DNA of 63,967 nt, filler included, from Vicugna vicugna (taxonomy: Eukaryota): NCBI GenBank assembly GCA_013265495.1. It is 80 parts of 79 records of this genome, joined end to end, with 100 filler letters (N's around TTAATTAATTAA, not from the genome) between each part and the next. Parts side by side here need not be neighbours in the genome. Positions count along the whole stretch, not along the records: positions 18,440 to 18,887 come from PNXW01006056.1; 79 more parts are not named here. One strand, 5' to 3'. Shown in pieces: positions 2,578 through 61,404 of this stretch. Below the pieces are notes generated by a model, which did no database searches, was not told where the DNA came from, and saw only the letters and a list, made by a program, of their open reading frames with translations. Within the stretch, counting starts at the first letter, position 1. Each line of letters begins with the position of its first letter. The translations under genes and the position numbers were made by a program.

Positions 2578-3127
2578 ATTCAGTATTCTTTATTCTATAT
2601 ACTAAATTCTGTGTTCTACATATTATATTCGTAATTCTATATTTAGTATTCTCTTTTCTATATTCTAAACACTGTTTTCTGCATTCCATGTTCTCAATTC
2701 TGGGTTTTGTATTCTGTTTTCCATATTCTATATTCTGTGTTCTACATTCAATATTCTGTATTCTATATTCTGCATTCCGAAGACTTTATTCTATATTCTG
2801 CGTTCTACATTGTATATTCTAAATTCTATATTCAGTATTCTAGTTTTATATACTCTAAATTCTGTGTTCTGCATTCCTTATTCTAAATTCTGGGTTCTCT
2901 ATTCTCTATTCTCTATTCTATATCTGTGTTCTACATTCTATATTCTGATTTCTATATTTAGTATTCTTTATTCTATATACTAAATTCTGTGTTCCACATT
3001 CTATATTCGAAATTCTTTATTCAGTATTTTGTTTTCTATATTCTAAATCTGTGTTCTGCATACCATGTCCTCAATTCCTGGTTTTTTTATTCTGTTTTTC
3101 ATATTCTATATTCTGTGTTCTACATTC
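2578..3127 (-). repeat. SatF heptamer satellite
   Basis: ATATTCT register; closely matches the reverse complement of ~340-640; internal ~378-bp period. Confidence 0.9.
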
Positions 3128-9363: not shown

Positions 9364-10466
9364 GAACAGGGAACCCACCTGTGACTGAAGAGAGCTGCGT
9401 GGAATAGTGTCTCGAGCTCCCCCACGCACTGAGAATGCCTCCGGAAACCTGAGCATGGGGAGGTTCCACCATCGGTCGGTAGCGAGTGTGTTCTAACGGA
9501 ATGCCTGAGCTCGCCTCCTATGAGGATTTCCCTAATGTCTATTTGCCCGGGAATGCTAGGGAGATTTGCAGGCAATCCCAGTGACAGAGGCTGCCTCCCC
9601 AAGGTCAGGAAAGTTATTGCTCGGATTTCCCCGAACAGGGAACCCACCTGTGACTGAAGAGAGCTGCGTGGAATAGTGTCTCGAGCTCCCCCACGCACTG
9701 AGAATGCCTCCGGAAACCTGAGCGTGGGGAGGTTCCACCAACGGTCGGCAGCGCGTGGGTTCTAACGGAATGCCTGAGCTCGCCTCCTATGAGGATTTCC
9801 CTAATGTCTATTTGCCCGGGAATGCTAGGGAGATTTGCAGGCAATCCCAGTGACAGAGGCTGCCTCCCCAAGGTCAGGAAAGTTATTGCTCGGATTTCCC
9901 CGAACAGGGAACCCACCTGTGACTGCAGAGAGCTGCGTGGTGTTGTCTCTCATGCTCCCCCACGCACTGAGAATGCTTCCGGAACCCTGAGCGTGGGGAG
10001 GTTCCAGCAACGGTCGGCAGCGCGTGGGTTCTAACGGAATGCCTAAGCTCGCCTCCTATGAGGANNNNNNNNNNNNNNNNNNNNNNNNNNNNNNNNNNNN
10101 NNNNNNNNNNNNNNNNNNNNNNNNNNNNNNNNNNNNNNNNNNNNNNNNNNNNNNNNNNNNNNNNNNNNNNNNNNNNNNNNNNNNNNNNNNNNNNNNNNNN
10201 NNNNNNNNNNNNNNNNNNNNNNNNNCCGGAATCCTGAGCGTGGGGAGGTTCCACCAACGGTCGGCAGCGCGTGGGTTCAATCGGACAGCCTAAGCTCGTC
10301 TCCCCTGAGGGTTTTCCTAATGTCTCTCTGACAGGGAATGCTAGGGGGGGGGGCTGGCAATCCCAGTTGCAGAGGCTGCCTCCATAAGGTCAGGGAAAAT
10401 ATTGCTCGGTCTTCCTCGAATAGGGAACCCATCTGTGAATGAAGAGAGCTGCGTGGAGTTGTCTCT
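9364..10466 (-). repeat. SatA, 269-bp subfamily
   Basis: GAACAGGGAACCCACC at 9364, 9633, 9902. Confidence 0.93.
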
Positions 10467-11476: not shown

Positions 11477-11947
11477 TTTAGAATATAGAATGTAGAACAT
11501 AAAATATGGAATGTAGAATACAGAATGCAGAATATTCAATACAGAATATAGAGTGTAGAAATCTGAATTTAGAATATAGAGTATTGAATACTGAATATAG
11601 AATTTAGAATATAGAATGTAGAACACATAATTTAGAATATAGAGTATTGAGTACTGAATATAGAATTTAGAATATAGAATGTAGAACACAGAATTTAGAA
11701 TATAGAATACAGAATACTTAATATAGGTTTTAGAATATACACAATGTAGAACACAGAATATAGAATATAGAATAAGGAATGCAAAATATAGATACAGAAG
11801 ATTGAATATAGAACACAGAATATAGAATATGGAAAACAGAACACAAACCCAGAATTTAGAACATGGAATGTAGAACACAGAATTTAGTATATAGAAAAGA
11901 GTATACTGAATATAGAATTTCAAATATAGAAAGTTGAACACAGAATT
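11477..11947 (+). repeat. SatF heptamer satellite
   Basis: AGAATAT register; 63-bp (9x7) duplication, AGAGTATTGA at 11578 and 11641. Confidence 0.9.
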
Positions 11948-12582: not shown

Positions 12583-13279
12583 CGTTCGTTCATCCAGCAC
12601 AAGGGGAACGGTTTGCAGGTGAAACACATAATCTGGTTTCTCAGTCTGTTTCCTAGTGCCAGTTTTATGTGCTTGCCGTTTTCACTGTAAAAACGAGTTG
12701 TAGCTTGTACCTCCCCATATATATGTAAGGAGTGGGATTTGCAACGAAATGAAACTATGTGTTCCCATAAATCTAGTTGATGGACGGCTTTCACACACAC
12801 TTCTCTCTCAGAACTAGAGACGTTCGTTCATCCAGTACAAAGGGAACGGTTTGCATGAAAGACAATTACTCTGGTTTGTCAGTCTGTTTACTTGTGCTGG
12901 TTTGAAGTGCCTGCCTATTTCACTGTAAACACGAGTTGGTGCTTATTCTTTCCCATATATATGTATGGAGTGGGGATTGCAAATTAAAAGAATCTATGTG
13001 TTCCCTTCAAGCTAGGTGAAGGACGGCTTTCACACACACTTCTCTCTCAGAACTGAGCATGTAGAGAGACGTTCGTTCATGCAGCACAAACGGAACGGGT
13101 TGCAGGAGAAACACTTACTCTGGTTTCTCAGTCTGTTTCCCGGTGCAGGTTTAAAGTACCTGCGGTTTGAACTGTAAAATCGAGTTGGAGCTTGTACCAC
13201 TTCATATATATGTATGGAGTGGGGATTGCAAATTAAAAGAATCTATGTGTTCCCTTCAAGCTAGGTGAAGGACGGCTTT
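12583..13279 (+). repeat. SatB: 249-bp tandem satellite
   Basis: CGTTCGTTCATCCAG...GTGTTCCCTTCAAGCTAGGTGAAGGACGGCTTTCACACAC monomers. Confidence 0.92.
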
Positions 13280-18439: not shown

Positions 18440-18731
18440 GATAAAGTTGGGGATGTCACATTTCATGAGTCTGTTCGGCTCCTCGTCTGGCCACCTGCTG
18501 CTTCTGATGGCTTTCTGGAGCGGAATATCACTGTAAAGGGCTATGGTAGGGATACCAGCTTTGGCCTTGTCCAAGTGGTCCACTCCATTGATGTAGCAGT
18601 GAAAGAGGGACCTAGATTCGTGATTGCACTGCCAGAGAACACCTTGGGCAGCAGCCATCTTCCAAAGTCTGACACAAAGCTGTTCAGTCTGAATAAGCTG
18701 TTCAGATCTCTTCTCGGGAGACTCTGCATTG
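18440..18731 (-). CDS. MRAP2: MRAP2-like last coding exon (divergent; compensated frameshifts; cut off at scaffold end)
   Basis: TTTTCTTTATAG acceptor (AG at 18733-32); NAESPEKR, FRLNSFVSDFGR (alternate frame), ESRSLFHCYIN...LDKAKA...AIRSS...NRLMKCDIPNF match the MRAP2 C-terminal domain. Confidence 0.85.
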
Positions 18732-18987
18732 CTATAAAGAAAACCAAAATAAAATATCGTTCACACTTTAGCTCGGTTACCTGAAGAATCAGTTTTTGCC
18801 ATCTACAGAGAGCAAATCCCTGCACAGAGCATACTGACATGAACTGGAAGTGAAAGACATCACTTCTGAACACATACAATTAAACCCNNNNNNNNNNNNN
18901 NNNNNNNNNNNNNNNNNNNNNNNNNNNNNNNTTAATTAATTAANNNNNNNNNNNNNNNNNNNNNNNNNNNNNNNNNNNNNNNNNNNN

Positions 18988-22279: not shown

Positions 22280-22716
22280 ATCATTTCTTTATCCTTGACT
22301 CTGGCCATCTTGATAATGATATGTTTTGTTGTGGGTCTGTTTGGGTTCTTCCTGTTTGGGACTGTCTGAGCCTCCTGTACTTGGATATCTGATTCCTTCT
22401 TTAGGTTTGGGAAGTTTTCAGTCATGATATCTTCAAATACCTTTTCAATCCCCTTTGTTCTTTCTTCCCTTTCTGGAACCCCTATTATGTGTAGATTGGC
22501 ATGCTTTATATTATCCCATAGGTTCCTTATATTGTTTTCATTGTTTTTTATTTGTTTTTCTTTCAGCTGTTCTGATTGGGTGCTTTCTGTTGNNNNNNNN
22601 NNNNNNNNNNNNNNNNNNNNNNNNNNNNNNNNNATTATCAAGCTTGTACAGCCTTTAGGTCAGCTCTCATATCAGCAAATGAGTTTATTAATTCTACTTG
22701 GTTCTTCTTTATAGCT
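22280..22716 (-). mobile_element. LINE-1 ORF1 fragment
   Basis: NIRNLWDNIKHANLHIIGVPEREE...ENFPNLKKESDIQVQEAQTVPNRKNPNRPTTKHIIIKM. Confidence 0.95.
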
Positions 22717-24633: not shown

Positions 24634-25056
24634 TTGAATACAGAATACTGAATATAGAATTTAGAATACAGAATATAGGACTCAGAATATAGAATATAGA
24701 AAATGAATGCAGAATATAGAATTTAGCATATAGAATGAAGAACACAAAATATTGAATATATAAAAAAGGATATAAAACCTAGAATTTATTAATGGAATGC
24801 CCAACACAGAATTTAGAATATAGAATACGGAATAGTGAATATAGAAATTAGAATATATCATGCAGAACACATAATTTAGAATATAGAGTACAGAATACTG
24901 AATATAGAATTTAGAATATATAATACAGAATACTGAATATAGAATTTAGAATATACAATGTAGGATACAGCATATAGTATATAGAATACGGAATACAGTA
25001 TATTGTATATATAGAATATAGAATGAATAACACAAAATATAGGATATACATTAGAG
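24634..25056 (+). repeat. SatF heptamer satellite
   Basis: AGAATAT register. Confidence 0.88.
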
Positions 25057-31589: not shown

Positions 31590-32411
31590 TATAGAATGAT
31601 GAACACAAAATATACAATATAGAACAGAGAATATGGAACCCAGAATTTAGAACATGGAATGGAGAACACAGAGTTTAGAATATAGAATTCAGAATACTGA
31701 ATATCGAATTTAGAATATGAATGTAGAACACAGTATATGGAATGTAGAATACGGAATGCAGAATATTGAATACAGAATATAGAATATAGAACACAGAATT
31801 TAGAATAAAGAATAAGGAATTCTGAATATAAAATTTAGAACATAGAACGTACAACACAGAATAGAGAATATAGAATAGAGAATATAGAACCCAGAATTTA
31901 AAACATGGAATGCAGAACACAGAATTTAGAATAAAGAATAAGGAATTCTGAATATAAAATTTAGAACATAGAACGTACAACACAGAATAGAGAATATAGA
32001 ATAGAGAATATAGAACCCAGAATTTAGAACATGGAATGCAGAACACAGAATTTAGAATATAGAATACAGAATACTGAGTATAGAATATAGAATATAGTAT
32101 GTAGAACACAGAATATAGAATATAGACTACGGAATGCAGAATATAGAATAAAGAATATAGAATGATGAACACAANNNNNNNNNNNNNNNNNNNNNNNNNN
32201 NNNNNNNNNNNNNNNNNNNNNNNNNNNNNNNNNNNNNNNNNNNNNNNNNNNNNNNNNNNNNNNNNNNNNNNNNNNNNNNNNNNNNNNNNNNNNNNNNNNN
32301 NNNNNNNNNNNNNNNNNNNNNNNNNNNNNNNNNNNNNNNNNNNNNNNNNNNNNNNNNNNTGAATAAAGACTTCGGAATGCAGAATATAGAATATAGAATA
32401 TAGAATGATGA
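31590..32411 (+). repeat. SatF heptamer satellite
   Basis: 126-bp (18x7) duplication, ATAAAGAATAAGG at 31805 and 31931. Confidence 0.9.
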
Positions 32412-33326: not shown

Positions 33327-35525
33327 TGTATTCTGTATTGTATATTCTATATTCTGTGTTCTGCATTCCATTTTCTAAATTCTTGTTTCTGTATTCTTTA
33401 TTCTATATTCTATAATCATTGTTCTGCATTCCGTGTTCTAAACACTGGGTTCTGACTTGTGTATTCTATATTCTATATTCTGTCTTCTACATTCAGTATT
33501 TTACATTCTATATTCTGTATTCTGTATTCTATATTCTAAATTCTGTGTACTGAATTCCATGTTTAAATTCTTGGTTCAGTATTCTGTATTCTGTAGTCTA
33601 TAATCTGTGTTCTGGATTCCAAGTTCTTTATTCTGGGTTCTGTATTCTGTATTCAGTATTCTATATTCTGTGTTCTACATTCTCTATTGTACATTGTATA
33701 TTCTGTATATTTTATTCCATATCCTATGTTCTGCATTTCATTTTCTGGATAATGGGTTCTGTGTTCTGTATTCTATATTCTATATAGTGTGTTTTGAAAT
33801 CAATGTTCTAAATTCTGGGTTCTGTATTCTTTATTCTATATTCTATATTCTGTGTTGTACATTCTATATTCTACATTCTATTTCTGTATTCTATATTCTA
33901 AATTCTGTGTCCTGAATTCCATGTACTAAATTCTGATTTCTGTATTCTGTATTCTATATTATGTATTCTGTGTTCTACATTCTATATACTATATTCTGTA
34001 TTCTGTATTCTGTATACTATATTCTGTGCTCTGCATTCCATATTCTATACTGTATTGTATATTCTATATTCTGTGTTCTGCATTCCATGTTCTANNNNNN
34101 NNNNNNNNNNNNNNNNNNNNNNNNNNNNNNNNNNNNNNTTAATTAATTAANNNNNNNNNNNNNNNNNNNNNNNNNNNNNNNNNNNNNNNNNNNNTATACT
34201 GTACTCTATGATCTGTGTTTTTCATTCTGTATTCTACACACAATATTCTGTGTACTGTATTCTATATTCTAAATTCCGGGTTCTACATTCTATATTTTCA
34301 ATATATATTCTGTATTCTGAACTGTATATTATTAATTCTCTGTTCTAAATTCCATGTTCTAAATTCTGGGTTCTCTAGTCTGCATTTTATATACTGTGTT
34401 CTACATTNNNNNNNNNNNNNNNNNNNNNNNNNNNNNNNNNNNNNNNNNNNNNNNNNNNNNNNNNNNNNNNNNNNNNNNNNNNNNNNNNNNNNNNNNNNNN
34501 NNNNNNNNNNNNNNNNNNNNNNNNNNNNNNNNNNNNNNNNNNNNNNNNNNNNNNNNNNNNNNNNNNNNNNNNNNNNNNNNNNNNNNNNNNNNNNNNNNNN
34601 NNNNNNNNNNNNNNNNNNNNNNNNNNNNNNNNNNNCTATATTCTATGACTTCTGAAATCCATGTTCTAAATCCTGGTATCTGTATTCTGTATTGTATATT
34701 CTATAGTCTGTGTTCTGCATTCCATGTTCTATATTCTGGTTTCTGTATTCTTTATTCTATATTCTATTCTCTTTGTTATGCATTCCGTGTTCTAAATACT
34801 GGCTTCTGACATGTGTATTCTATNNNNNNNNNNNNNNNNNNNNNNNNNNNNNNNNNNNNNNNNNNNNTTAATTAATTAANNNNNNNNNNNNNNNNNNNNN
34901 NNNNNNNNNNNNNNNNNNNNNNNGCAGAATATAGAATAAAGACATCGGAATGCAGAATATAGAATACATAATATACAATGTAGAACACAATATAGAATAT
35001 GGAAAACAAAATACAAGTCACAGAATTGAGAACATGGAATGCAGAACACAGAATTTGTAATATAAAATAGAGAATACTGAATATAGAATTAAGAATATAG
35101 AATGAAGAACAAAGAATATAGAATATATAATATAGAATATAGAACACAGAATTTGGAACATGGAGTGCAGAACACAAAATTTAGAATATAGAATACCGAA
35201 TTCTGAATATAGAATATGAATATACAATGTAGAGCACAGAATTTAGAATATAGAATAAAGAATACTGAATATAGGATTTATAATATACAATGTAGAACAC
35301 AGAATATAGAATACGGAATGAAGAAGAAAGAATACAGATAATAGAATGTAGAACACAGAATACAGAATATGGAAAACAGAATACAAAACCAAGGATTGAG
35401 AACATGGAATGCAGAACATAGAATTTAGAATAAAGAAAAGAGTATACTGAATATAGAATTTAGAATATACAATGTAAAACACAGTATATAGAATATAGAC
35501 TACGGAATGCAGAATATAGAATATA
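33327..35525. repeat. SatF (three scaffolds: 33327-34094 -, 34195-34823 -, 34924-35525 +)
   Basis: ATATTCT/AGAATAT heptamer register throughout. Confidence 0.88.
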
Positions 35526-39918: not shown

Positions 39919-41567
39919 GAGTGGAGTTTGAAACTGAAAAGAAAATTTGTGTTCCCTTCAAGAAAGTTGAAGGATAGCTTTCACACACAATTAACTCTCA
40001 GAACTGAGCATGTGGTGAGACGTTCGTTCATCCAGCACAAAGGGAACGGGTTGCAGGAGAAACCCTTACTCTGGTTTCTCAGTCTGTTTCCNNNNNNNNN
40101 NNNNNNNNNNNNNNNNNNNNNNNNNNNNNNNNNNNNNNNNNNNNNNNNNNNNNNNNNNNNNNNNNNNNNNNNNNNNNNNNNNNNNNNNNNNNNNNNNNNN
40201 NNNNNNNNNNNNNNNNNNNNNNNNNNNNNNNNNNNNNNNNNNNNNNNNNNNNNNNNNNNNNNNNNNNNNNNNNNNNNNNNNNNNNNNNNNNNNNNNNNNN
40301 NNNNNNNNNNNNNNNNNNNNNNNNNNNNNNNNNNNNNNNNNNNNNNNNNNNNNNNNNNNNNNNNNNNNNNNNNNNNNNNNNNNNNNNNNNNNNNNNNNNN
40401 NNTCCCCATATATATGTATGGAGTGGAGTTTGCAACTGAAAAGAAACTTTGTGTTCCCTTGAAGCTAGGTGAAGGACGGCTTTCACACACACTTATCTCT
40501 CAGAACTGAGCATGTGGAGAGACGTCCGTTCATCCAGCACAAAGAGAACTGGTTGGAGGAGAAACACTGACTGTTTTTTCAATCTGTTTCCTAGTGCCGG
40601 TTTGAAATGCCTGCCGTTTTCACNNNNNNNNNNNNNNNNNNNNNNNNNNNNNNNNNNNNNNNNNNNNTTAATTAATTAANNNNNNNNNNNNNNNNNNNNN
40701 NNNNNNNNNNNNNNNNNNNNNNNTGAAGTGCCTGCCTTTTTCACTGTAAACCCGAGTTGGTGCTTATTGTTCCCCATATATATGTATGGTGTGGGGATGG
40801 CAACTGAAAAGAAATTTTTGGTTCCCTTCAAGCTGGGTGAAGGACGGATTTCACACACATATATCTCTCAGACTTTAGCATGTTGAGAGACGTTCGTTCA
40901 TCCAGTACAAAGGGAACGGTTTGCATGAAAGACAATTACTCTGGTTTGTCAGTCTGTTTCCTTGTGCTGGTTTGAAGTGCCTGCCTTTTTCACTGTAAAC
41001 CCGAGTTGGTGCTTATTGTTCCCCATATATATGTATGGTGTGGGGATGGCAACTGAAAAGAAATTTTGGGTTCCCTTCAAGCTGGGTGAAGGACGGATTT
41101 CACACACATATATCTCTCAGACTTTAGCATGTTGAGAGACGTTCGTTCATGCAGCACAAACGGAACGGGTTGCAGGAGAAACAAATACTCTGGTTTCTCA
41201 GTCTGTTTCCTAGTGCCGGTTTGAAGTTCCTGCCTTTTTCACTGTAAACACGAGTTGGNNNNNNNNNNNNNNNNNNNNNNNNNNNNNNNNNNNNNNNNNN
41301 NNNNNNNNNNNNNNNNNNNNNNNNNNNNNNNNNNNNNNNNNNNNNNNNNNNNNNNNNNNNNNNNNNNNNNNNNNNNNNNNNNNNNNNNNNNNNNNNNNNN
41401 NNNNNNNNNNNNNNNNNNNNNNNNNNNNNNNNNNNNNNNNNNNNNNNNTGGTTTCTCATTTCCCGGTGCAGGTTTAAAGATCCTGCGGTTTGAACTGTAA
41501 AATCGAGTTGGAGCTTGTACCCCTCCATATATATGTATGGAGTGGGGATTGCAAATTAAAAGAATCT
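39919..41567 (+). repeat. SatB (two scaffolds: 39919-40623 and 40724-41567)
   Basis: TGAAGTGCCTGCC at 40724 and 40973 (period 249). Confidence 0.93.
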
Positions 41568-44315: not shown

Positions 44316-45157
44316 AACACCTGTGACTGAAGAGAGCTGCGTGGAGTTTTCTCTGGAGCTATCCAACTCAATGACAATGCTTCCGGATCCTGAGCATGGG
44401 GAGGTACCTCCAACGGTCGGTAGCGCGTGTGTTCTAAGGGAATGCCTGTGCTCGTCTCCCCTCAGGTTTTTCCTCATGTTTTCTGTGCCAGGGAATGCTA
44501 GGGGCGTTGAAGGAAATCCCAGTGACAGAGGCTGCCTCCCCAAGTTAAGGAAAATTATTTCTCGGACTTCCCCGAGCAGAGAACACCTGTGAATGTAGAG
44601 AGCTGCGTGGAGTTGTCTCTCGAGCTCCCCCACTCAATGACTATGTTTCAAGTAATCCTGAGAGTCGGGAGGTTCCAACAAAGTTCGGCAGCGAGTGGGT
44701 TCTATGGGAATGCCTGTGCTCATCGACTCTGAGGTTTTTCCTCATGTCTCTGTGCCAGGGAATGCTAGGGCTGGTTGCAGGAAATCCCAGTGACAGAGGC
44801 TGCCTCCCCAAGGTCAGGGAATTTATTTCTCGGACTTCCCCGAACAGGGAACACCTCTGACTGAATAGAGATGCGTGGAGTTGTCTCTCGAGCTCCCCCA
44901 CAACTCCCCCACGCACTGAAAATGGTTCCGGAATCCTGAGTGTGGTGTTGTTCCACCAACGGTCGGCAGCGCGTGGGTTGTAACGGAAAGCCTAAGCTCG
45001 TCTCCCCTGAGGCTTTTCCTAATATCAGTGTGCCAGGGAATGCTAGGGGGGTTTGCAGGAAATCCCAGTGACAGAGGCTGCCGCCCCAATTCAGGGAAGG
45101 TATTTCTCGTATTTCCCCCAACAGGGAACACCTGTGACAGAAGAGAGCTGCGTGGAG
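44316..45157 (-). repeat. SatA
   Basis: AACACCTGTGACTGAAGAGAGCTGCGTGGAG monomers. Confidence 0.92.
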
Positions 45158-47267: not shown

Positions 47268-48003
47268 TCAGGATTCCGGAACCATTGTCTGTGCATGGGG
47301 GAGCTCGAGAGAAAACTCCACGCTGCTCTCTTCATTTTCAGGAGTTCCCTGTTCGGGGAAGTCCGGGAAATACTTTCCCTGAACTTGGGGAGGCAGATTC
47401 GGTCAATGGGATATCCTGCAATCAACCATAGCATTCCTGGCACAGAGACATTAGGAAATCCCTCAGGGGAGACGAGCTTAGACATTCCGTTCGAAACCAC
47501 GCTCTGCCGACCGTTGTTGCAACCTCCCCACGCTCAGGTTTCCGAAACCATTGTCAGTGCGTGGGGGAGCTCGAGAGTCAACTCGAAGTAGCTATCTTCA
47601 GTCACAGCAGTTCCCTGATCGGGGAAGTCCGGAAAATAACTTCCCTGACCTTGGGGAGGCAGCCTCGGTCACGGGATATCCTGTAAACCCCCTTAGCATT
47701 CCCTGGCACAGAGATATTAGGAAAACCCTCAGGGGAGACGAGTTTAAGCATTCCGTTAGAACCCACGCGCTGCCGACCGTTGGTGGAACTTCCCCACGCT
47801 CTGGATTCCGGAACCATTGTCAGTGCGTGGGGGAGCTCATCTCTTCAGTCACAGGTGTTCCCTCTTCGGGGAAGTCTGGGATATAGCTTCCCTGAACTTG
47901 GGGAGGCCGCCTCGGTCACTGGGATATCCTGTAAACACCCCTAGCATTCCCTATCAATGAGACATTAGGAAAAAACTCAGGGGATACGAGCTTAGGCATT
48001 CCG
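47268..48003 (+). repeat. SatA
   Basis: ~267-bp monomers; one carries an internal deletion near 47838. Confidence 0.92.
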
Positions 48004-48574: not shown

Positions 48575-49252
48575 AGAGGAATGAATTAGTGACTTAGAAG
48601 ACAGGAAAATAGAAATCAGTAAAGCTACAAGAGGAACAATGAGAAACAAATAAAAAAAGCATAAGGGACCTATGGGTTAATAGAAAGCATGCCAATCGTG
48701 GCATGATAGAAGTCCCAGGAGGGGAGGAAAAATCAAATGGGATTGCAAAGATGTTTGAAGAGATCATGACTGAGAACTTCCCAAACTTAAAGAAGGAATC
48801 AGATATCCAAGTAAAGGATGCTCAGTGTGTCCCAAACAGGAAGAACCCAAATACACCCACAGCAAGTCATATAATTAATATGGCCAGTGTCAAGGATAAA
48901 GGAATGATCTAAAGGCAGCAAGAGAATAGCAAAGAGTGAGTTACAAAGGAATCCCCTTAAGACTCCCGGCTGATTTCACAACACATATACTACAGGCCAC
49001 AGGAGAGTGGCAAGATATATTCAAAGTCCTGAATGAAAAAATGATATATCCTAGCATATTTTAACCAGAAATGCGATCCTTTATGTTAGAAGGAAACATA
49101 AAGAATTTCACAGATAAGAAAAAGCTACAAGAGTTTATCAACACAAGACCCATGCTAAAAGAAATATTGAAAGTTCTACTATAAAAAGAAAGAACAAGGA
49201 TGCTACAAGGATGCTACAGAAATGTGAAACTCACAGCTGGAAAGGTGATAGC
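48575..49252 (+). mobile_element. LINE-1 ORF1 3' half (decayed)
   Basis: FEEIMTENFPNLKKESDIQVKDAQCVPNRKNPN; same family as the 22280 and 27207 copies. Confidence 0.93.
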
Positions 49253-55627: not shown

Positions 55628-56371
55628 TCTACATTCTATATTCTAAATTCTATATTAAGTTTTCTGTATTCTTTATTCTAAACCCTGTGTTCTGCCTTCC
55701 ATGTTCTAAATTCTCAGTTGTGTATTCTGTTTTCCATATTCTATATTCTGTGTTCTACATTCTATATTCTGTATTCTATATTTTGCATTCCGTATTCTAC
55801 ATTTTATATTTTGTGTACTACATTCAATATTCTAAATTCTATATTCAGTATTCCGTANNNNNNNNNNNNNNNNNNNNNNNNNNNNNNNNNNNNNNNNNNN
55901 NNNNNNNNNNNNNNNNNNNNNNNNNNNNNNNNNNNNNNNNNNNNNNNNNNNNNNNNNNNNNNNNNNNNNNNNNNNNNNNNNNNNNNNNNNNNNNNNNNNN
56001 NNNNNNNNNNNNNNNNNNNNNNNNNNNNNNNNNNNNNNNNNNNNNNNNNNNNNNNNNNNNNNNNNNNNNNNNNNNNNNNNNNNNNNNNNNNNNNNNNNNN
56101 NNNNNNNNNNNNNNNNNNNNNNNNNNNNNNNNNNNNNNNNNNNNNNNNNNNNNNNNNNNNNNNNNNNNNNNNNNNNNNNNNNNNNNNNNNNNNNNNNNAT
56201 TCTCTGCTCTAAAATCTATATTCAGTAATATGTATTTTATATTCTAAATACTGTGTTCGGCTTTCCATATTCTAAATTCTGTGTTGTATATTCTCTATTC
56301 TATATTCTATATGCTGTGTTTTTTAATCTATTTTCTACATCCCATATTCTGCATACCGTATTCTATATTCT
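55628..56371 (-). repeat. SatF heptamer satellite
   Basis: ATATTCT register. Confidence 0.88.
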
Positions 56372-57383: not shown

Positions 57384-58419
57384 GCCAGGGAATGCTAGGG
57401 GGTTTACAGGATATCCCAGTGACAGAGGGTGACTCCCCAAGTCAGGGAAGGTTTTTCTCGTACTTCCCCGAACATGGAACACCTGTGACTGACGAGAGCT
57501 GCGTGGAGTTTTCTCTAGAGCTCCCCCACGCACTGACAATGGTTCCGGAATCCTGAGCGTGGGGAGGTTCCACCAACGGTCGGCAACGCGTGGGTTGTAA
57601 CGGAAAGCCTAATCTTGTCTCCCCTGAGGGTTTTCCTAATGTCTCTCTGCCAGGGAATGCTCGGAGGGTTGGCAGGATATCCCAGTGTCAGAGTCTGCCT
57701 CACCAAGGTCAGGGAATATTTTTCATGGACTTCCCCGAACATGGAACACCTGTGACTGAAGAGAGCTGGGTGGAGTTGTCTCTCGAGCTCCCCCACGCAC
57801 TGACAATGGTTCCGGAATCCTGAGCGTGGGGAGGTTCCACCAACGGTCGGCAGCGCGTGGGTTCNNNNNNNNNNNNNNNNNNNNNNNNNNNNNNNNNNNN
57901 NNNNNNNNNNNNNNNNNNNNNNNNNNNNNNNNNNNNNNNNNNNNNNNNNNNNNNNNNNNNNNNNNNNNNNNNNNNNNNNNNNNNNNNNNNNNNNNNNNNN
58001 NNNNNNNNNNNNNNNNNNNNNNNNNNNNNNNNNNNNNNNNNNNNNNNNNNNNNNNNNNNNNNNNNNNNNNNNNNNNNNNNNNNNNNNNNNNNNNNNNNNN
58101 NNNNNNNNNNNNNNNNNNNNNNNNNNNNNNNNNNNNNNNNNNNNNNNNNNNNNNNNNNNNNNNNNNNNNNNNNNNNNNNNNNNNNNNNNNNNNNNNNNNN
58201 NNNNNNNNNNNNNNNNNNNNNNNNNNNNNNNNNNNNNNNNNNNNNNNNNNNNNNNNNNNNNNNNNNNNNNNNNNNNNNNGTGGAGTTGTCTCTCGAGCTC
58301 CCCCACGCACTGAAAATGGTTCCGGAATCCTGAGCGGGGGGAGGAGCCACCAAAGTTCGGCAGCGCTTGGGTTTTAATGGAAAGCCTAAGATCATCTCCC
58401 CTGAGGGTTTTCCTAATGT
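57384..58419 (-). repeat. SatA
   Basis: ~267-bp monomers. Confidence 0.92.
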
Positions 58420-58519: not shown

Positions 58520-58969
58520 TCTATATTCTTTGTTCTACATTCTATATTCTGAATTCTATATTCACTATTCTGTATTCTATATTCTAAATTCTATGTTCTA
58601 CATTCTATACTCTAAATTCGATATTCAATATACTGTATTTTATATTCTAAATTCTGTGTTCTACATTCCATGTTCTATATTCTGGATTCTATATTCTCTA
58701 TTTTATATTTTGTGCTGATTATTCTACAATCTATATTCTATATTCTGCATTCCGTAGTNNNNNNNNNNNNNNNNNNNNNNNNNNNNNNNNNNNNNNNNNN
58801 NNNNNNNNNNNNNNNNNNNNNNNNNNNNNNNNNNNNNNNNNNNNNNNNNNNNNNNNNNNNNNNNNNNNNNNNNNNNNNNNNNNNNNNNNNNNNNNNNNNN
58901 NNNNTGTTCTGCATTCCATATTCCAAATTCTGGTTTCTATATTCTGTTTTCCATATTCTATATTCTGTG
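58520..58969 (-). repeat. SatF heptamer satellite
   Basis: ATATTCT register. Confidence 0.88.
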
Positions 58970-60306: not shown

Positions 60307-61404
60307 AGGGGTGTTTGTAGGATATCCCAGTGACATATGCTGCCTCCCCAAAGTTAGGGAAGGTATTTCCCGGACTTCCGCGAACAGGAAACTCCTGTGA
60401 ATGAAGAGAGCTGCGTGGAGTTGTCTCTCGAGCTCCCCCACGCACTGACAATGGTTCCGGAATCCTGAGCGTGGGGAGGTTCCACCAACGGTCGGCAGCG
60501 CGTGGGTTCTAACGGAATTCCTAAGGTCGTCTCCCCTGAGGGTTTTCCTAATTTGTCTGTGCCAGGGAATGGTAGGGGTGTTTGTAGGATATCCCAGTGA
60601 CATATGCTGCCTCCCCAAAGTTAGGGAAGGTATTTCCCGGACTTCCCCTAACAGGGAACCCCTGAGAATGAAGAGAGCTGCGTGGAGTTGTCTCTCGATT
60701 TCCACACGCACTGACAATATTTCCGGAATCCTGAGCGTGGGGAGGTTCCACCAACGGTCGGCAGCGCGTGGGTTCTAACGGAATTCCTAAGGTCGTCTCC
60801 CCTGAGGGTTTTCCTAATGTCTCTGTGCCAGGGAATGCTAGGGGTGATTGCAGGATATCCCNNNNNNNNNNNNNNNNNNNNNNNNNNNNNNNNNNNNNNN
60901 NNNNNNNNNNNNNNNNNNNNNNNNNNNNNNNNNNNNNNNNNNNNNNNNNNNNNNNNNNNNNNNNNNNNNNNNNNNNNNNNNNNNNNNNNNNNNNNNNNNN
61001 NNNNNNNNNNNNNNNNNNNNNNNNNNNNNNNNNNNNNNNNNNNNNNNNNNNNNNNNNNNNNNNNNNNNNNNNNNNNNNNNNNNNNNNNNNNNNNNNNNNN
61101 NNNNNNNNNNNNNNNNNNNNNNNNNNNNNNNNNNNNNNNNNNNNNNNNNNNNNNNNNNNNNNNNNNNCGGACTTCCCCGAACATGGCACTCCTGTGAATG
61201 AAGAGAGCTGTGTGGAGTTGTCTCTCGAGCTCCCCCACGCACTGACAATGGTTTCGGAATCCTGAGCGTGGGGAGGTTCCACCAACGGTCGGCAGCGTGA
61301 GGGTTCTAACGGAATGCCTAAGCTCAAATACCCTGAGGGTTTTCCAAATGTCTCTGTGTCCGGGAATGCTAGGGGTGATTGCAGGATATCCCAGTGTCTG
61401 AGGC
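60307..61404 (-). repeat. SatA
   Basis: GATATCCCAGTGACATATGC at 60321 and 60588 (period 267). Confidence 0.93.

Follow-up and report, generated by a model that had tools for sequence, protein, structure and literature searches.

Probable chance restoration of the reading frame in one of many camelid copies of the last MRAP2 exon

Introduction

MRAP2 is an appetite-regulating gene. Its product dimerises via its transmembrane domain, as stated in passages of bioRxiv 10.1101/2020.08.03.235200. Two described systems come close to the locus presented here. The first is the compensatory frameshift pair, in which two non-triplet indels sum to a restored frame and the stretch between them is recoded. 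According to passages of PMC8935012, such pairs occur in real, working genes, and the counts there are confined to pairs whose indels are 1-2 nt long, fall on a single branch and leave no surviving single-indel state. The second is the set of pseudogene-rich repeat blocks of the alpaca genome, which hold fragmented, multi-copy gene pieces (NEK10-like, ATF5, FMN2-like and ABHD17A-like) and which the authors explain, in passages of PMC13751797, by duplication and decay.

We analysed a stretch of 63,967 nucleotides, filler included, of Vicugna vicugna (assembly GCA_013265495.1), hereafter the window. It consists of 80 short scaffolds of 88-1190 bp (median 726), the adjacency of which is uninformative, joined by spacers of 100 nt (a 12-nt stop linker with 44 N on either side). 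The initial annotation had reported on one of these scaffolds an MRAP2-like exon rescued by two compensating frameshifts, and had read it as either a divergent paralogue with a recoded cytoplasmic segment of about 25 amino acids or an unprocessed pseudogene.

Results

The piece is a whole unplaced scaffold of 448 bp (PNXW01006056.1, positions 18440..18887 of the window), both ends of which are assembly ends flanked by the 100-nt artificial spacers; the exon is therefore truncated at 18440 and the feature has no true neighbours around it. On the minus strand, intron accounts for 156 nt of the scaffold and exon for 292 nt, with truncation at both ends. The intron remnant (18732..18887) carries a pyrimidine tract and an AG acceptor at 18733-18732, with pyrimidines at 14 of the 20 preceding positions and no second AG within 30 nt. 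The remainder (18440..18731) aligned by codons with the last coding exon of MRAP2 and agreed with camel MRAP2 in 70 of 92 aligned codons, the acceptor lying at the same position. The acceptor was intact, as had been claimed, and the retained intron remnant rules out a processed retrocopy, in agreement with the initial annotation.

The minus-strand frame beginning at 18730 had no stop to the end of the piece, which confirmed the open frame reported earlier. In this MRAP2-phase frame, 25 "recoded" codons (18632..18706, minus strand; 22 codons in true MRAP2) are followed by an in-frame remnant of the MRAP2 tail (18441..18631, minus strand). The conserved MRAP2 motif was, as described, readable in the other frame alone, and the alternative-frame peptide of the recoded stretch is largely common to camelid copy models. 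Within the piece, the restored frame includes neither a start nor a transmembrane domain; it would depend on MRAP2 exons 2-3 lying upstream, and these are present in no related model. A Pfam search of the ORF of the piece returned no family, and tblastn of 11 query proteins against the other 79 pieces of the window found no other exon of MRAP2 and no 5' exon of the copy models with a match better than E 0.3.

Repeats were observed elsewhere in the window, many scaffolds of which are satellite DNA. A GC-rich satellite with a unit of 265-269 bp was found at 1288-2477, 9364-10466, 44316-45157, 47268-48003 and 60307-61404, to which BLAST added 57384-58419, these pieces being 79-87% alike in their best alignments. 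A satellite with a 249-bp unit was present at 12583-13279 and 40724-41567. An AT-rich satellite of 7-bp subunits, with 63-bp higher-order units in most of its pieces, occurred at 1-1187, 2578-3127, 11477-11947, 24634-25056, 31590-32411, 33327-34094, 34195-34823, 34924-35525, 55628-56371 and 58520-58969. When 110 ORFs of the window were scanned against Pfam, L1 ORF1 fragments (PF02994) were detected at 22282-22590 (minus strand, E 1e-15) and 48643-48909 (plus strand, E 1e-6), and five other matches were weak (E 3e-5 to 3e-4, none or one passing stretch), lay mostly within repeats and look like chance. The Rfam search of the window gave no match.

Frameshift-aware alignment of the piece to five reference MRAP2 proteins (two camel records, pig, horse and cattle) showed the same three events against all five: a gain of 13 nt near 18706, a loss of 3 nt near 18645 and a loss of 1 nt near 18633. 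The 13-nt insert after the eighth codon (NAESPEKR) and the 1-nt loss near 18630-36 had both been announced and were both recovered. The net change had been given as +12 nt and is instead +9 nt (+13, -3, -1), because an additional 3-nt loss, that of an Asp codon near 18645, had been overlooked. The two losses (18643..18647 and 18630..18636, minus strand, both approximate) together form a family-wide loss of 4 nt, found in Camelus and Vicugna. Of 61 full-length MRAP2 proteins with the two flanking motifs, 60 have an interval of 32 amino acids between them; in the piece this interval is 35.

The insert itself (18695..18707, minus strand, placement sliding by 1 nt) had been described as a partial duplication. 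This was correct insofar as an 11-nt direct repeat joins 18705-18695 to 18687-18677, and only 35 of 20,000 shuffles yielded such a repeat so close by. It is better described, however, as a partial tandem copy of the adjoining 18-nt unit (18677..18694, minus strand), the first copy lacking 5 nt; TRF returned a period of 18 and 2.1 copies for this region.

Searches with the ORF of the piece returned four longer proteins and seven of similar length. One of these 11 was a whale MRAP2, and the other 10 were models of copies like the piece (nine of them assigned to camelids); cluster look-ups gave three more, for a total of 13. RefSeq and GenBank already list the copies as models, under the names "uncharacterized", "MRAP2-like" or "MRAP2". 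They include XP_072813705.1 and XP_072812642.1 of V. pacos, LOC141579767 (XP_074234389.1) of C. bactrianus, and LOC116151471 (XP_064349169.1), KAB1252368, KAB1252374, KAB1264735, KAB1271210, KAB1252349/50 and KAB1251259 of C. dromedarius. Their contigs differ: 23.6 and 113.9 Mb in the alpaca, 71.4 Mb in the Bactrian camel, 71.1, 85.4, 52.1, 1.47, 0.91 and 0.27 Mb in the dromedary, and two more of 5 and 3 kb. The duplicate described in the initial annotation is one of many copies, with 13 public models lying on different contigs.

Intact MRAP2 proteins of camelids (XP_032340435.1, EPY87908.1, KAB1275568.1 and XP_072821662.1) were found on other contigs, of 79 Mb in the alpaca, 81 Mb in the dromedary and 99 Mb in the Bactrian camel. 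The intact parent gene is thereby present in alpaca and camels apart from the copies, and a camelid loss of the gene is ruled out. Among the best 120 of 465 matches to pig MRAP2, none was named as a second full-length protein of this kind from a camelid.

A tree was built from the in-frame tail, with 29 rows and 92 columns, its orthologues being two from camelids and 13 others selected among those retrieved. It placed the piece and the 13 copy models in a single clade with support of 100/100, apart from intact camelid MRAP2. The clade is star-like internally. The piece is sister to alpaca XP_072813705 (100/96), the closest model, with which it shares 90 of 93 codons. Branch lengths of the copies from the family root were 0.06-0.16, versus 0.03 for the whole distance between camel and alpaca MRAP2. 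The copy models and the piece have in common the exon, the diagnostic substitutions of the tail, the clade and, where the segment is shown, the 4-nt loss; they are unlike in that the 13-nt insert is present only in the piece, in which it makes a stop in the phase that those models use.

Comparison of the indels across the family showed that the 4-nt loss is present in all 10 copy models in which the segment is seen, both genera being represented, while three of the 13 models skip the segment and are uninformative on this loss. In these 10 models, 31 codons separate the exon start from the return to the MRAP2 frame, a stretch 4 nt shorter than in MRAP2. The 13-nt insert was absent from all 10, and it was the sole indel of the piece in comparison with the eight models aligned at the codon level, including the nearest one. 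The presence of the loss in both genera indicates that it is older than the split of Camelus and Vicugna, which is put at 11-25 million years in passages of PMC13751797. The 13-nt gain, judged from the sequences compared, appears to be recent and private to this copy. Since the loss is family-wide and the insert private to the piece, the two indels are far apart in time, and their mutual cancellation is most likely accidental. The rescue by two compensating frameshifts that had been proposed does not fit an old loss common to the family and a gain seen in the piece alone.

The phase in which the exon is entered was also informative. Only entry from MRAP2 exon 3 restores the frame. In the camelid models, a foreign 5' exon leads into the exon one base earlier, and under this phase the insert introduces a stop codon (18702..18704, minus strand) after nine codons and so breaks the frame. 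A paralogue with a recoded segment of about 25 amino acids, as had been suggested, is at odds with this stop in the phase used by the related models.

The N-terminus of the models had no similarity to that of MRAP2, and the first 101 residues of a camel model gave no usable match for the foreign 5' exon in the ESM Atlas. The RefSeq models P0003, P0006 and P0171, of camel and alpaca, have the same foreign 5' start and the same junction to the exon. Alpaca P0171 and camel P0003 agree in their first 16 residues and in the sequence of the junction, and the camel locus has several isoforms in RefSeq; this shared start and junction, with the isoforms, suggests that the copy family is probably transcribed.

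The transmembrane domain of the MRAP family (PF15183) was found in none of the 11 copy models scanned and in three of five true MRAP2 proteins, the two misses being forms without exons 2-3. The remaining two of the 13 models were covered by a hydrophobicity check, in which a hydrophobic 19-mer appeared in only one of the 13, downstream of the MRAP2 part. The copy models end 19 to 149 residues past the DIP motif, versus 41-42 in MRAP2. From these relatives, which are themselves gene predictions, we infer that exons 2-3, which encode the transmembrane part, were probably lost in this copy.

We then compared the tail of the piece with the conservation of MRAP2, its columns being classed as conserved or variable from 42 non-camelid placental orthologues. 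Over the last 55 codons, 7 of 26 conserved and 6 of 29 variable columns differed between the piece and alpaca MRAP2 (Fisher p 0.75), while the 42 orthologues differed at 26 of 1099 conserved (2%) and 435 of 1209 variable positions in the same columns. The share of differences that fell in conserved columns was 7/13 in the piece versus 26/461 in the orthologues (binomial p 2e-6); no single orthologue had more than four conserved columns changed, and none of 47 differed between camel and alpaca MRAP2. Among 11 copy sequences, three near-duplicates having been left out, 12 amino-acid changes were shared (7 in conserved and 5 in variable columns), and the 55 changes that followed the amplification were distributed as 25 in conserved and 30 in variable columns, over 48 and 44 columns, respectively (p 0.35 for blind placement). 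By this protein-level proxy, which covers 55 columns, is distinct from dN/dS and is compatible with selection for a function unrelated to MRAP2, the constraint on MRAP2 appears to be gone in the copy family.

Judged as a member of the MRAP family (Pfam PF15183), the piece resembles its parent in last-exon homology, including that of the C-terminal tail (70/92 codons), and in the position of the acceptor. It is unlike the parent in that the N-terminal region and the single transmembrane helix are absent from it and from the related models, in that purifying selection on the residues conserved in mammals was not detected with the protein-level proxy, and in that its copies are many. The paralogue proposed earlier is not supported, conserved MRAP2 residues being changed as often as variable ones and the related models being devoid of transmembrane exons.

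Discussion

The piece is very probably a copy of the end of an intron and the last exon of MRAP2, from a multi-copy camelid family, and a likely pseudogene fragment in which the frame was restored by chance. It retains an intron (156 nt and the acceptor), an intact parent exists elsewhere in alpaca and camels, and disablements accompany unconstrained divergence, whereas the intact acceptor and the MRAP2-phase frame, free of stops to the end of the piece, speak on the other side. Of the two options left by the initial annotation, the unprocessed duplicate or pseudogene stands, in view of the intron, the acceptor and the intact MRAP2 elsewhere, while the recoded paralogue is not supported.

The history of the piece may be outlined in four steps. 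Before the split of Camelus and Vicugna, a duplication at the DNA level would have taken in no less than the last exon and the adjoining end of its intron; the intron remnant is seen in the piece, and the timing is suggested by the sharing among genera. The ancestral copy then lost 3 + 1 nt and gained the 12 shared amino-acid changes, and was amplified to the many contigs on which the public models lie, likely within a duplicated block. Finally, in this copy alone, 18 nt were duplicated in tandem with 5 nt missing, a structure visible in the sequence and one likely due to replication slippage or repair. As about one third of new indels would belong to the frame class that restores the MRAP2 phase, one such case would be expected among many drifting copies.

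Families of this kind are already known, as multi-copy gene fragments in camelid repeat blocks in passages of PMC13751797 and as duplicated pseudogenes generally. The MRAP2 copies resemble the alpaca blocks as fragmented multi-copy gene pieces. They are unlike them in two respects: MRAP has no occurrence in the main text and one supplement of PMC13751797, and the blocks are described there as absent or reduced in camels, whereas the MRAP2 copies are many in the dromedary. Literature searches at the level of listings, in which subscription papers were thinly covered, turned up no account of MRAP2 duplicates forming a family in camelids, and passages of PMC6598621 contained no mention of MRAP.

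The comparison with compensatory pairs leads in the same direction. As in a pCFM, the indels of the piece sum to a multiple of three (+9) with no intervening stop in the MRAP2 phase. The single branch and the missing single-indel state that mark the pairs in passages of PMC8935012 were not found, since 10 of 10 models carry the 4-nt loss alone. Those pairs are of 1-2 nt, on a single branch and in working genes, whereas here the state with a single frameshift survives in 10 models, one indel is of 13 nt and the host is unconstrained.

Among the other explanations, the one that survives best attributes the 13-nt insert to an error in the reads or in the assembly of an orphan low-coverage scaffold, the piece being an allele or near copy of XP_072813705, in which case it would still be a pseudogene fragment. 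The scaffold is unplaced, 448 bp long and found amid satellite debris, and none of the 10 public models that show the segment has the insert. However, the insert has the structure expected of a biological tandem duplication that lost nucleotides internally, rather than that of a homopolymer slip, and 3 of 93 codons differ from the nearest model, as in a distinct copy or allele. In an index of sequencing runs, 20 of the 24 runs listed contained part of the 448 bp and none reached half of its 39 sampled words (best share 0.33), which speaks neither for nor against the insert. We consider such an error unlikely.

It is considerably less probable that the family encodes a real chimeric protein, in which a foreign GC-rich 5' exon is spliced in the shifted phase, and that this copy was knocked out by the new stop. 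The old 1-nt loss would return the MRAP2 tail to frame in such a protein, the common start and junction of P0171 and P0003 and the several RefSeq isoforms are in keeping with it, and the shifted segment of 31 codons is free of stops in 10 of 10 models, although models are open frames by construction. Against it, the later changes are blind to the conservation of MRAP2, the C-termini and 5' exons differ among models, the copy branches (0.06-0.16) exceed the camel-alpaca distance of MRAP2 (0.03) and no Pfam domain is present. Equally improbable is an extended form of this idea, in which an amplified transcription unit, made by an old frameshift that joined the foreign 5' exon and the 31-codon alternative-frame peptide to the MRAP2 tail, would encode a soluble protein found only in camelids and lacking a transmembrane domain. 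More than 11 million years later, the late 13-nt duplication would then revert this copy to the ancestral MRAP2 frame, which would be a resurrection if transmembrane exons survive upstream.

The least credible reading of all is that of an MRAP2 paralogue resurrected at full length, its cytoplasmic segment of 25 aa recoded, which still modulates melanocortin receptors, for although the acceptor is intact, the MRAP2-phase frame is open and compensatory pairs exist in real genes (passages of PMC8935012), the frame would have been broken since before the split (11-25 million years in passages of PMC13751797) while conserved residues decayed, no copy model has the transmembrane domain by which MRAP2 dimerises (passages of bioRxiv 10.1101/2020.08.03.235200), and the best 120 of 465 matches to pig MRAP2 name no second full-length camelid protein.

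Returning to the pseudogene fragment as the preferred reading, an open frame produced by two indels is no evidence of rescue before the indels are dated against relatives. If the chimeric unit outlined above were real, a lineage-specific new gene would have been derived from a regulator of energy balance in mammals of deserts and high altitudes. As it stands, the piece is likely an ordinary dead duplicate of little consequence in itself, as opposed to a new partner of a receptor. Its relatives may matter more in practice: seven dromedary copy models in GenBank are named plainly "MRAP2" and can mislead camelid gene counts, and copies so named would perhaps also mislead variant calls at camelid MRAP2. 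MRAP2 is a selective-sweep candidate in Kazakh Bactrian camels, according to passages of PMC13564503, and a multi-copy exon family could disturb the mapping of reads at this sweep.
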